A stretch of DNA of 47,876 bases, from the UHGV virus genome UHGV-0385110. One strand, given 5' to 3'. The DNA comes from a virus. Position 1 is the stretch's first letter; every line of letters begins with the position of its first letter. Below are positions 11,827 through 45,641 of this stretch, piece by piece. A model generated the notes under the pieces. It saw only the letters and a program-made list of their open reading frames with translations, was not told the DNA's origin and ran no database searches. The translations under genes were made by a program, and so were the position numbers.

Positions 11827-11852
11827 AAACCCCCTTTCGGGGGTTTTGTTTT
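11827..11852. terminator. bidirectional rho-independent terminator
   Basis: aaaCCCCCtttcGGGGGttttgtttt. Ends the plus-strand island and the minus-strand major tail gene. Confidence 0.6.
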
Positions 11853-12606
11853 ATGCGGTGACGGTGACAACGCACTTGGTCGAGTCAACGTAATCCGGGT
11901 TGGTCGCCGAATCAGTCACGCGGCAGAAGTACGTGCCAGCATCGCCAGTGGAGGCGCTCGCCTTGGTATACGTGGCAGAGGTTGCACCACTAATCGGCGA
12001 CGTGCCTTTGTACCACTGATAAGAGTACGGCTCAACGCCGCCATCTGCGACAACCGGGCCAATCGTCAGAGCTGAGCCGCTAGCAACGCTAAGGGTCGCG
12101 GAGATATCAGTGGTCAGTGCCAGGTCTTCGATACTTGACACGTCAACGGTAGAGCCATCATACGGCTTGAATTCGACCGAGCCAGTGATGATGTCGTTGG
12201 TGCCACCATCATAGCTCAGCGCAGTGATGTTGCAGTAGGCCACGACAACGGTGTTACCAGTGGTCTGGCGAACCCACAGCGACGGCTGACGACGCGCCTT
12301 AACTTCTGTGACAAAATATTTGATGAGGTTATGCACACCGTACTCATCAGCCTTGTCAGCCTTGCGTACTTCGAAGTCGCCGGAAATGGTCAGGTCGGCA
12401 GTCGTTACCAGAGTAGCAACAAAGCCATCACCATCATCGGCCTCGGAGGTGGTGGTACTCGGACTGAAGTCGACACCTTTCGAGGTCATCGGGGCGAAAA
12501 ACTTCCAGTCTTCCTCTGCTGGCACAGCATCCCAGCAGCCATCAGCCAGCTCGATGAGCGACTGGCGACCTGTGATGATGCCGTTATCATTTGCACAAAT
12601 AGCCAT
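11851..12606 (-). CDS. major tail protein with C-terminal Ig-like domain
   Basis: 251 aa. C-terminal ..GGVEPYSYQWYKG..AGTYFCRVTD.. Ig-like signature as on siphovirus major tail proteins. SD GAGGA before ATG at 12606. Confidence 0.7.
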   Translation of the reverse strand: MAICANDNGIITGRQSLIELADGCWDAVPAEEDWKFFAPMTSKGVDFSPSTTTSEADDGDGFVATLVTTADLTISGDFEVRKADKADEYGVHNLIKYFVTEVKARRQPSLWVRQTTGNTVVVAYCNITALSYDGGTNDIITGSVEFKPYDGSTVDVSSIEDLALTTDISATLSVASGSALTIGPVVADGGVEPYSYQWYKGTSPISGATSATYTKASASTGDAGTYFCRVTDSATNPDYVDSTKCVVTVTA

Positions 12607-12651
12607 GTTTAGAATCCTCTGTGTTTAGCCAAACAATCGCATTATATCATG

Positions 12652-12680
12652 TTGACAGGTTTTGATTGGTGGTGTAGATT
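12652..12680 (+). promoter_or_regulatory. canonical sigma70-like promoter TTGACA-17-TAGATT firing into an ORF-less region
   Basis: TTGACA 12652-12657, 17-nt spacer, TAGATT 12675-12680 (ggtgTAGATT motif core). Confidence 0.5.
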
Positions 12681-12922
12681 AAATGGCAGACACAACAGGT
12701 AAGAGCATTAAAGAACTTGCAAAGAGCTTAACGGTCTGCGAAAGCGTTTCCTAGTGGCACAACTGGCAGGTACAACTGAGTGCTCTTTCCGTTGTGGTAA
12801 TGCGGCTATGCGCACGCGGCAAGGTAAAAATAACTCCTTTTGGGTATGCCTGCTGGATTTACCGACCAGCAACATGGAGGCACCATGGCCACAACAATAA
12901 AATGCTGGATAATCGGATGATT

Positions 12923-12947
12923 ACAGGTTCGAATCCTGTCGCTGGAA
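12923..12947 (+). ncRNA. tRNA-like 3-prime fragment (T-arm acagGTTCGAATCctgt plus 7-nt acceptor strand)
   Basis: Canonical T-loop GGTTCGAATCC with 5-bp T-stem, followed by cgctgga + discriminator a. No complete cloverleaf could be folded upstream. Confidence 0.25.
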
Positions 12948-13109
12948 CAACAACTACAAACTAAATGTAGAGGGTAATATGCCATTATTTCCACCAAGCT
13001 CTGATTGGTATAAAAAGCAACGGCTTATGAAGTCAATTAGCCATATAGCAAACCCGCATAAAAGAAAGTCCATGCTAAACACAAAATCACTGTGGATGAA
13101 GGTTAAATA

Positions 13110-13131
13110 GGCCGGTCAGCGGCCTTTTTTA
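13110..13131 (+). terminator. rho-independent terminator for the plus-strand ORF-less transcript
   Basis: GGCCGgtcagCGGCC followed by TTTTTTAT. Confidence 0.45.
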
Positions 13132-13512
13132 TTCACCAAAAACAACCCTCAGCAACAACTCATAAACCGGCCTCTTCTCTGTCGTAAGCGTAGGGCGACC
13201 AAGCGGCGCCTGCAACTGAATCATGCCAATGCAACTATCAACTGGATGTTCTTTGATATATGAGATGACATCAAGCGCTTTTGCTTTTGTCTCCTCGATG
13301 TTGTACTGACCCTGCTGTCCGACAACATAGAGCGAGAAATAATAATCTCCGCCGAGTCCTTTGCTTACGCTCGTGCCGCCATTGGATTGCAGCACCATGA
13401 AGCGCTCTGTACCAACTTCGGTATCGTTCCAGAACTCAAGCTGAGAAGTCCATCCATCATAAAGACCGGCATCACTAAGGTACTGGTCAACAAGCTCAAG
13501 CATATCTCTCAT
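13129..13512 (-). CDS. tail completion / tail terminator protein (putative)
   Basis: 127 aa. Position between connector genes and major tail gene. ATGA overlap with upstream gene. Confidence 0.35.
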   Translation of the reverse strand: MRDMLELVDQYLSDAGLYDGWTSQLEFWNDTEVGTERFMVLQSNGGTSVSKGLGGDYYFSLYVVGQQGQYNIEETKAKALDVISYIKEHPVDSCIGMIQLQAPLGRPTLTTEKRPVYELLLRVVFGE

Positions 13513-44664: not shown

Positions 44665-45641
44665 TGAAAGTATATCTAAACAACGAACTCAGCAATGAGC
44701 AGTACCACGCTGACACCGAGCACATCAACGGCTCTGGTCTGTGGAACATCTACGACCGCTGCCCGGCAGCATGGCGATATAAAGACGAAGAAGACGAGCA
44801 GTCAAAGGCGCTTGTCTTCGGAACGGGTAGCCATACCGCACTGCTTGAGCCTGAGCGCTTCGAAGCAGAATATGCCCGCATGCCAGTTGTCGAAGATTTT
44901 CCAAAAGACAAAGATGGCAATCGCACGGTGCTGGTAACTGCTTCTGACATGAACTCATGGGCAAAAGAGCGCGGCATCAAAGGTCTTTCAGGGAAGTCGA
45001 AAGCTGATGTGATCAAAATCATTCAGGCCACTGGAGAGCCAGTACAAATTTACGATGTTATCCGTAAAGAGGCAGAGAAGGCCGCTACTGGTAAGCATAT
45101 GCTTGAAGGAACTGATTATGACGCCATCATGCAGATGCGCGCCGTAATCCATGCGAACAGCTATTACAGCAGCCTGCTTTCTGGTGCTTATTCCGAGGTG
45201 TCAATTCTCGGTGAGTTGCTTGGCGAGCCATCAAAAGTTCGCTTTGACTGCCTTACTCGAGGTGGCGACATCATCGACTACAAAACAGCAGTGAGTGCCA
45301 AGCCTGATGAGTTTTTTCGCCATGCTGCGCGGCTCGGATACTTTATGAAGATGGCAATGCAGCACGACATTTTTGTAGAGGCTTATGGGCATGCACCTCG
45401 CTCGGTAAACCTTCTGGTGCAGGAGAAAAAATCTCCATTCATCCCTGCATTGATTCGTCTGACGGATGAGCAGTTACGCATTGGTCGCATTCAGCTGCGC
45501 AGCGCGATGGAAATCTATAAGGCATGCAAAAAAGCCAATTCATGGCCCGGTTACTCAATGGGTAATCCGGTTATCGAAATGGAAACGCCGGAATGGTACA
45601 AGCAACAGTATGGCATTAATGACAAACATAGCAACTGGTAG
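44664..45641 (+). CDS. PD-(D/E)xK recombination exonuclease (YqaJ / lambda Exo / RecE-like)
   Basis: 325 aa. ..VRFDCLTRGGDIIDYKTA.. D...D/E-x-K core. Precedes ATPase + SSB, as in phage recombination modules. Confidence 0.55.
   Translation: MKVYLNNELSNEQYHADTEHINGSGLWNIYDRCPAAWRYKDEEDEQSKALVFGTGSHTALLEPERFEAEYARMPVVEDFPKDKDGNRTVLVTASDMNSWAKERGIKGLSGKSKADVIKIIQATGEPVQIYDVIRKEAEKAATGKHMLEGTDYDAIMQMRAVIHANSYYSSLLSGAYSEVSILGELLGEPSKVRFDCLTRGGDIIDYKTAVSAKPDEFFRHAARLGYFMKMAMQHDIFVEAYGHAPRSVNLLVQEKKSPFIPALIRLTDEQLRIGRIQLRSAMEIYKACKKANSWPGYSMGNPVIEMETPEWYKQQYGINDKHSNW

Follow-up and report, generated by a model that had tools for sequence, protein, structure and literature searches.

The window analysed here is the whole stretch of 47,876 nucleotides of the virus genome UHGV-0385110, whose source is a Roufvirus-like Klebsiella siphovirus with ~93% identity to Tbat1_6, DP01, ZCKP8 and pIS4-A. 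Within the tail module, two minus-strand genes are separated by an intergenic gap at positions 12607–13128. This gap holds a small plus-strand unit that runs from a promoter to an intrinsic terminator and carries, in order, two predicted structured RNA modules (A and B), a remnant of a tRNA gene and a cassette with a short open reading frame (ORF) (Table 1).

Table 1 Features of the plus-strand unit and the genes on either side, in window positions
Feature	Position	Strand	Basis or detail
Major tail protein gene	11851–12606	minus	phrog_853
Sigma-70 promoter, TTGACA-17-TAGATT	12652–12680	+	consensus scan, 10/12 positions match
Hairpin module A	12691–12796	+	fold and comparative pairing
Module B, STnc100/PasD-like multi-branched RNA core	12791–12895	+	covariance model R1
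Weak promoter-like site, TGGCCA-16-GATAAT	12886–12913	+	consensus scan, 9/12 matches
tRNA-Met(CAT) remnant, 42 nt	12909–12950	+	alignment to intact tRNA-Met of VLCpiS13d, KP591P1 and L026
178-nt cassette after the tRNA-Met remnant (43-codon ORF and terminator)	12951–13128	+	identical module in L026
43-codon ORF	12979–13110	+	ribosome-binding site (RBS) GAGGG at 12970–12974, 4 nt ahead of the ATG
Intrinsic terminator, AGGCCG-gtcag-CGGCCT and TTTTTT	13109–13131 (stem 13109–13125)	+	terminator scan
127-aa tail-module gene, convergent to the unit	13129–13512	minus	phrog_782

Both boundary signals lie where a sequence-only reading of positions 12652–13131 had placed them. The promoter scan is not significant by itself (4 sites against 3.1 expected per 3 kb); of the 38 homologous intergenic regions, however, 36 have exactly these hexamers and this spacing, and one has a CTGACA variant. 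The terminator, a stem followed by a run of T, adjoins the stop codon of the convergent 127-aa gene and is shared by the relatives in which a cassette occupies this position. Transcription would begin at about 12687, and the remaining transcript is predicted to be ~440 nt long with two structured modules. Plus-strand ORFs in the unit encode 23, 48, 56, 26 and 43 aa, close to the lengths given in the earlier reading, and none is long. Its statement that the unit contains no credible ORF went too far, as the 43-codon ORF has a GAGGG RBS and occupies a site at which relatives carry small-ORF cassettes.

We took the homologous intergenic region from 37 relatives, comprising 35 IMG/VR loci and 2 GenBank phages. 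Among these Klebsiella siphoviruses the region is 169–1316 bp long and contains tRNA-Arg and tRNA-Met, in some cases with tRNA-Ser and tRNA-Thr, on the plus strand between the same two tail genes. The shortest complete form consists of the promoter, an 18-nt leader, tRNA-Arg(TCT) and tRNA-Met(CAT), the last of which adjoins the stop codon of the convergent gene; in this basal architecture the promoter thus lies 18 nt upstream of tRNA-Arg. Longer forms have extra RNA modules inserted between the promoter and the tRNAs, and small-ORF cassettes, each with its own terminator, 3′ of tRNA-Met. The size range, the shared promoter and the basal tRNA form together mark the locus as a tRNA mini-operon that has been conserved and as a hotspot of insertions. 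The locus had been thought undescribed, which is incorrect: GenBank relatives have tRNA-Met, tRNA-Arg and tRNA-Ser annotated at exactly this position on the plus strand (KP591P1, VLCpiS13b and pYD38-A). Locus, promoter and strand are the same in these tRNA clusters as in the window. Their tRNAs are intact, whereas all that is left in the window is the 3′ fragment of 42 nt, altered at two positions. An intact tRNA is missing from 11 of the 38 homologous regions, and the lesions differ. Most relatives also carry a ~160-nt conserved module after the promoter and before the first A hairpin (for example, L001 1584–1745). This module is missing in the window, where hairpin A begins ~5 nt past the inferred start site.

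The remnant at 12909–12950 comprises the last two anticodon bases, the 3′ strand of the anticodon stem, the variable loop, the T-arm, the 3′ strand of the acceptor and a mutated CCA. The T-arm (acagg-TTCGAAT-cctgt, 12923–12939) and the acceptor strand behind it are as the sequence-only reading described them, and the 5′ acceptor strand, the D-arm and an intact anticodon loop are indeed absent. Over 12909–12948, identity to the 3′ part of tRNA-Met(CAT) is 95–97.5% across more than 25 relatives. Two point changes set the remnant apart from the intact gene of L026: G>T at 12943, within the acceptor strand, and C>A at 12949, within the CCA. Alignment with VLCpiS13d, in which module B, a spacer and tRNA-Met follow one another, places 9 nt (12900–12908) where that phage has 159 nt; a deletion has taken out the spacer along with the 5′ half of tRNA-Met, and the 3′ fragment that is left is dead. 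ARAGORN found no tRNA gene anywhere in the window, and the Rfam tRNA model covered the T-arm alone (12919–12939, model positions 44–63; 14.4 bits, E = 9.8, against a gathering score of 29). Because the segment is colinear with the tRNA-Met of the relatives yet gives no cloverleaf call, it is almost certainly, as judged from sequence, a fragment of a tRNA gene (a pseudogene remnant) and not a tRNA gene. The proposal of a degenerate tRNA was therefore right for 12909–12950, which corresponds to the tRNA-Met of the relatives between the second base of the anticodon and the 3′ terminus.

Truncated tRNA-Met genes in relatives are of three independent types, with breakpoints equivalent to 12909, 12923 and 12928. 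Four loci (L027, L031, L020 and L035) carry chimeric tRNAs, in which a 5′ part of tRNA-Arg is joined to a 3′ part of tRNA-Met at the common GGTTCGAATCC and which ARAGORN no longer calls. In another lesion, tRNA-Met is cut at the T-loop. Several independent truncations together with Arg/Met chimeras form a pattern of decay. The region is probably a decayed copy of a small promoter-driven tRNA/small RNA (sRNA) operon, in which the structured modules A and B have been kept and the tRNA fragment is dead.

Module A is a long imperfect hairpin. In its lower stem, CACAAC (12691–12696) pairs with GTTGTG (12791–12796), followed by a bulged A at 12697. GG (12698–12699) then pairs with CC (12789–12790), and a U.U mismatch (12700/12788) leads into the upper stem, in which AAGAGCAUU (12701–12709) pairs with AGUGCUCUU (12779–12787). 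An apical domain of ~69 nt (12710–12778) completes the hairpin. The stem thus comprises 6 + 2 + 9 bp and continues into the tip, giving ~20 bp with one bulge and one U.U mismatch. The 6-bp hairpin reported previously, cacaac at 12757 with gttgtg at 12791, can form; comparative data nevertheless favour the pairing of gttgtg with CACAAC at 12691–12696.

The same stem recurs far beyond this locus. In the relatives it encloses 31 distinct elements of 68–134 nt, and the two-arm pattern is found in at least 120 IMG/VR contigs as well as in 43 species genomes. The variant of the window itself is carried by E. coli prophages, between Q and S (~95% identity over 12690–12804), and by HK620, also between Q and S (91% over 12671–12804). 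The species genomes comprise Enterobacterales prophages and contigs of unrelated taxa with an identical 65-nt match, found in assemblies of Pseudomonas, Shewanella, Oceanobacillus, Bradyrhizobium and others (L168, L191, L198 and ~20 short contigs). As the lambda copy gives the same 65-nt match and several of these contigs are ~48.4–48.5 kb long with low coverage, the matches in unrelated taxa look like contamination with phage lambda.

To assess pairing, we compared 147 distinct A stems. These are 93.7% paired, against 36–65% when partners are slid, and both sides have changed in 18 of 19 pairs; G.U pairs number 199 against 12 A.C. Of the 147 stems, 108 have the U.U mismatch; the constancy of the bulged A among them is not independent evidence, since it was a criterion by which the stems were collected. 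Some A hairpins directly adjoin tRNA ends, and every tRNA within 1 kb (38 of 117 contexts) shares the strand of the hairpin. Pairing, compensatory changes, the excess of G.U and the shared orientation with tRNAs indicate an RNA structure made from the plus strand, and we consider it highly probable that A is a real structured RNA. The tips, by contrast with the stems, vary: they fall into 53 unrelated sequence clusters and are not unusually stable as a class (mean z = −0.43; 15% below −1.64). T-arm-like hairpins occur in 13 of 117 tips, for which shuffled sequences give an expectation of 0.42. Folding energies of the window segments are unremarkable (z = −1.6 and −1.1).

No Rfam family covered hairpin A at permissive thresholds in the window, the relatives, lambda or P1, and literature searches covering the stem sequence and RNase III action on the late leader or late transcript of lambda returned no description of it. 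Candidates that were considered and set aside are miRNA precursors, RAGATH-24 and snoRNAs, which gave weak chance matches in these scans, and a Y RNA-like (YrlA) identity for the T-arm-bearing hairpins, for which the best scores were 15–26 bits against a gathering score of 69. A weak match to RAGATH-24 on the minus strand, inside the major tail protein gene (12467–12568; 18.8 bits, E = 0.83), most likely reflects chance.

Lambda and P1 are among the carriers of hairpin A. In lambda (NC_001416) it occupies 44787–44863, right after tR′, the terminator of the 6S RNA. Over 44787–44942 (L209 988–1143), a reduced domain resembling B, with GTTGTGCTG/CAGCACAAC as its closing helix, comes after the hairpin, and the lambda late leader overall folds far better than shuffled sequences (z = −6). 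The P1 ban operon contains two copies, one of which starts straight after the CCA of tRNA-Thr. At this P1 locus (NC_005856 69472–70041; L211 1179–1748), the minus-strand genes plp and upl overlie the two plus-strand A hairpins, plp overlaps the end of tRNA-Thr, and an STnc100-like domain lies just downstream of the hairpins; plp and upl may be mis-called ORFs over RNA genes. The E. coli K-12 prophages DLP12 and Qin yielded no canonical A hairpin, only a diverged variant upstream of dicF. This variant, in the dicB operon of Qin (K-12 1649164–1649254; L213 19165–19255), precedes the sRNA gene dicF by ~130 nt, and its stem reads CATAAC-G-CG-A-AAGCGCA ... TGCGCTT-C-CG-GTTGTG.

Module B overlaps the end of A. 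It is closed by a helix between GUUGUGG (12791–12797) and CCACAAC (12889–12895), so that its 5′ strand is the 3′ arm of A. Inside it, the first hairpin (from ~12802) contains a bulged A, and CAUGG-AGGCA-CCAUG (12873–12887) forms the last. We built a covariance model (R1) from 12 copies outside the source phage group, true STnc100 among them, with the window and its close relatives left out of the seed. The three helices of the seed are 98.7% paired, with both sides changed in 10 of 19 pairs. In the window, R1 recovered module B with exact ends (58.7 bits, E = 7.5e-13) as the sole significant match, the next best having E = 0.18. The window copy has the complete core fold, namely a closing helix, a bulged-A first hairpin and a terminal hairpin with a GAGGCAC-type loop.

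The Rfam model for STnc100 (RF02076) gave no match at E ≤ 10 on 12400–13400 or 12770–12915. On this model true STnc100, which follows stx2B in O157, reaches 207.7 bits, and a graded series of intermediates connects it to the copy of B on a P1-like plasmid (43 bits, E = 1e-7); the scores of the P1-like intermediates, 43 and 33 bits, are both below the gathering score of 47. B is not followed directly by a terminator: the tRNA remnant comes next, and the only terminator lies 214 nt downstream. B is very likely related to STnc100. As the Rfam model misses the window copy and the copy lacks a terminator of its own, we regard it as a divergent relative, not as a member of STnc100 by the Rfam criterion.

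STnc100 and PasD are related prophage sRNAs of E. coli and Salmonella (bioRxiv 10.64898/2026.05.13.724894), and their function has been described as still unclear (PMC12370729). With B they share a multi-branched core closed by a helix of 7–9 bp, a bulged-A first hairpin, a GGAGGCAC-type loop in the last hairpin and a location in phage transcripts near tRNAs or late genes. The window copy of B is too divergent for the Rfam model and has neither the 5′ leader of STnc100 nor its own terminator; it also differs from the Pas sRNAs in having no terminator directly behind it. Moreover, B is fused to hairpin A in the tail module of a virulent-type siphovirus, whereas STnc100 and PasD reside in a lambdoid late region. 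The suggestion of a structured small RNA was thus correct for the upstream 205 nt, although these hold not one new RNA but a member of a lambda/P1 hairpin family and an STnc100-like domain.

The overlap of A and B is not peculiar to the window. Among 109 A hairpins with enough flanking sequence, a perfect complement of the 3′ arm occurs 58–142 nt downstream in 74, against 14 of 109 in the upstream control. A and B are therefore usually paired, with two helices competing for one strand. The lambda copy illustrates this competition, as its minimum-energy fold takes the B closing helix and its centroid fold takes the full A hairpin.

Downstream of the tRNA remnant, the cassette with the 43-codon ORF is identical over 12951–13128 to the module that lies behind an intact tRNA-Met in the IMG/VR locus L026. 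The ORF ends 1 nt ahead of the terminator stem. At the same site, relatives carry alternative cassettes that encode 61 aa, 32–34 aa or 65 + 32 aa (L008, L012, L021, L029, L034 and L036), and one terminator, GCCGC-N6-GCGGCCTTTT, closes every one of them. The 61-aa product matches phrog_35112. The promoter-like site upstream of the ORF (12886–12913) spans the deletion junction, and from its sequence may be either a chance match or a new promoter made by the deletion.

These observations raise the question of whether the unit is mainly a protein-coding 'moron', whose promoter expresses a 43-aa basic peptide and whose upstream RNA is only a long structured 5′ untranslated region. The spacing of RBS, start codon and terminator, the other small ORFs (61, 32–34 and 65 aa) at the same site and before the same terminator, the phrog_35112 match and the identical cassette in L026 all speak for this reading. 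Against it, DNA BLAST and tblastn, and searches of GenBank phages, of a 5.8-billion-protein collection and of PHROGs, returned no homologue of the 43-aa product, and the substitution pattern cannot be evaluated from the two identical copies known. Furthermore, modules A and B are conserved on their own across unrelated phages, which argues that they are not mere leader sequence. We therefore regard a mainly protein-coding unit as rather doubtful.

A further alternative is that A acts as DNA, either as a miniature inverted-repeat mobile element or as an attC-like recombination site, with arms that a recombinase would recognise and the interior as cargo. Several properties are reminiscent of integron attC sites and miniature inverted-repeat elements, namely imperfect inverted arms, an extra-helical base, a variable centre and recurrence in a variable hotspot. 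The arms are near-identical across unrelated phages and the interiors unrelated; CACAAC forms a direct repeat that flanks the A–B unit and is single in the empty site; and the locus is an insertion hotspot with the length range given above. The plus-strand excess of G.U over A.C, however, is not expected of a DNA inverted repeat, and the orientation of A is always that of the nearby tRNAs. The attC core consensus is RYYYAAC/GTTRRRY, and ACACAAC and GTTGTGG each break it at one position, so that the arms do not fit. In addition, no recombinase or integrase gene was seen next to the copies studied at tail-gene, lambda-type Q–S and P1 ban-operon positions. A role of A as a DNA element is accordingly very unlikely.

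The idea that the tRNA 3′ fragment is a functional mimic, either decoying a host nuclease that targets tRNAs or providing a processing signal, is highly improbable: its T-arm is perfect, the 3′ end of tRNA-Met is kept in all three truncation types and T-arm-like hairpins are enriched in A tips, but the fragment differs from the functional gene of the relatives in the acceptor strand and the CCA, as relaxed selection would give, lacks the 5′ elements and intact anticodon loop that known anticodon nucleases would target, and belongs to a decaying locus at which many relatives retain intact tRNAs instead.

Returning to A as a structured RNA, we considered how it might act in a transcript that carries tRNAs and sRNAs. 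RNase III takes part in the maturation of T4 tRNAs and of DicF, and the early and late mRNAs of T7 carry RNase III sites. For lambda, RNase III processing sites in the Q-dependent late transcript in vivo were reportedly the subject, by title, of work by Daniels et al. in 1988 (reference 49 of PMC7547250). The RNase III hairpins of the lambda late leader, T7 mRNA, T4 tRNAs and DicF resemble A in having a ~20-bp stem with a bulge and a mismatch, and, like A, they lie between the functional RNAs of a polycistronic phage transcript. The A stem provides about two helical turns of double-stranded RNA with covariation-supported pairing, as expected of an RNase III hairpin, and abuts tRNA ends and the starts of sRNAs. 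Given that the A family adjoins tR′ in lambda, it is a candidate counterpart of the RNase III sites of the lambda late leader. On this comparative basis, the chance that A is an RNase III site appears about even.

A plausible sequence of events can be outlined. Host RNase III would cut the A stem and in this way detach the tRNAs or sRNAs next to it from the primary transcript; an uncut stable hairpin beside the 3′ end of a tRNA would block exonucleolytic trimming. One strand serves both as the 3′ arm of A and as the 5′ strand of the B closing helix, and cutting A would therefore free it for the B fold: release of GUUGUGG would let the closing helix form. The likely products in the window would be the B RNA and possibly the 43-aa peptide, with the tRNA fragment as debris.

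Compared with RNase III hairpins, however, the A stem is far more conserved, and its tip far more variable, than recognition by RNase III alone explains. To our knowledge, near-identical stem sequences are not normally required by this enzyme. That the stem, bulged A and U.U mismatch included, is conserved beyond what RNase III needs hints at an additional, sequence-specific partner. A broader reading would take A–B as a single mobile phage RNA module that matures by processing-triggered refolding, with the A tip as exchangeable cargo. The primary transcript would hold GUUGUGG in A until RNase III, or a factor recognising the bulged A and the U.U mismatch, released the strand. The 53 types of tip, some with tRNA T-arm mimics, could then be, for example, small regulatory or decoy RNAs rather than filler. 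We put this reading forward as a speculative and, at present, unlikely one.

Taken as a whole, positions 12652–13131 are an ordinary decayed tRNA operon, and the A–B RNA module is the part that deserves follow-up. The feature that drew attention to the locus is likewise ordinary, being a decayed tRNA gene rather than a new tRNA mimic. What accompanies it is a hairpin that combines a sharply conserved stem with an exchangeable tip and is in most cases joined to a fold resembling STnc100. This hairpin recurs near tRNAs and late genes of unrelated enterobacterial phages and is lacking from Rfam. Should A prove to be where RNase III cuts the lambda late leader, it would provide a simple, testable rule for how phages punctuate their tRNA and sRNA transcripts, as well as a handle on the 5′ ends of the prophage sRNAs STnc100 and PasD. 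If instead A and B do form a mobile module, they would represent an uncharacterised RNA system of phages, lambda and P1 included.
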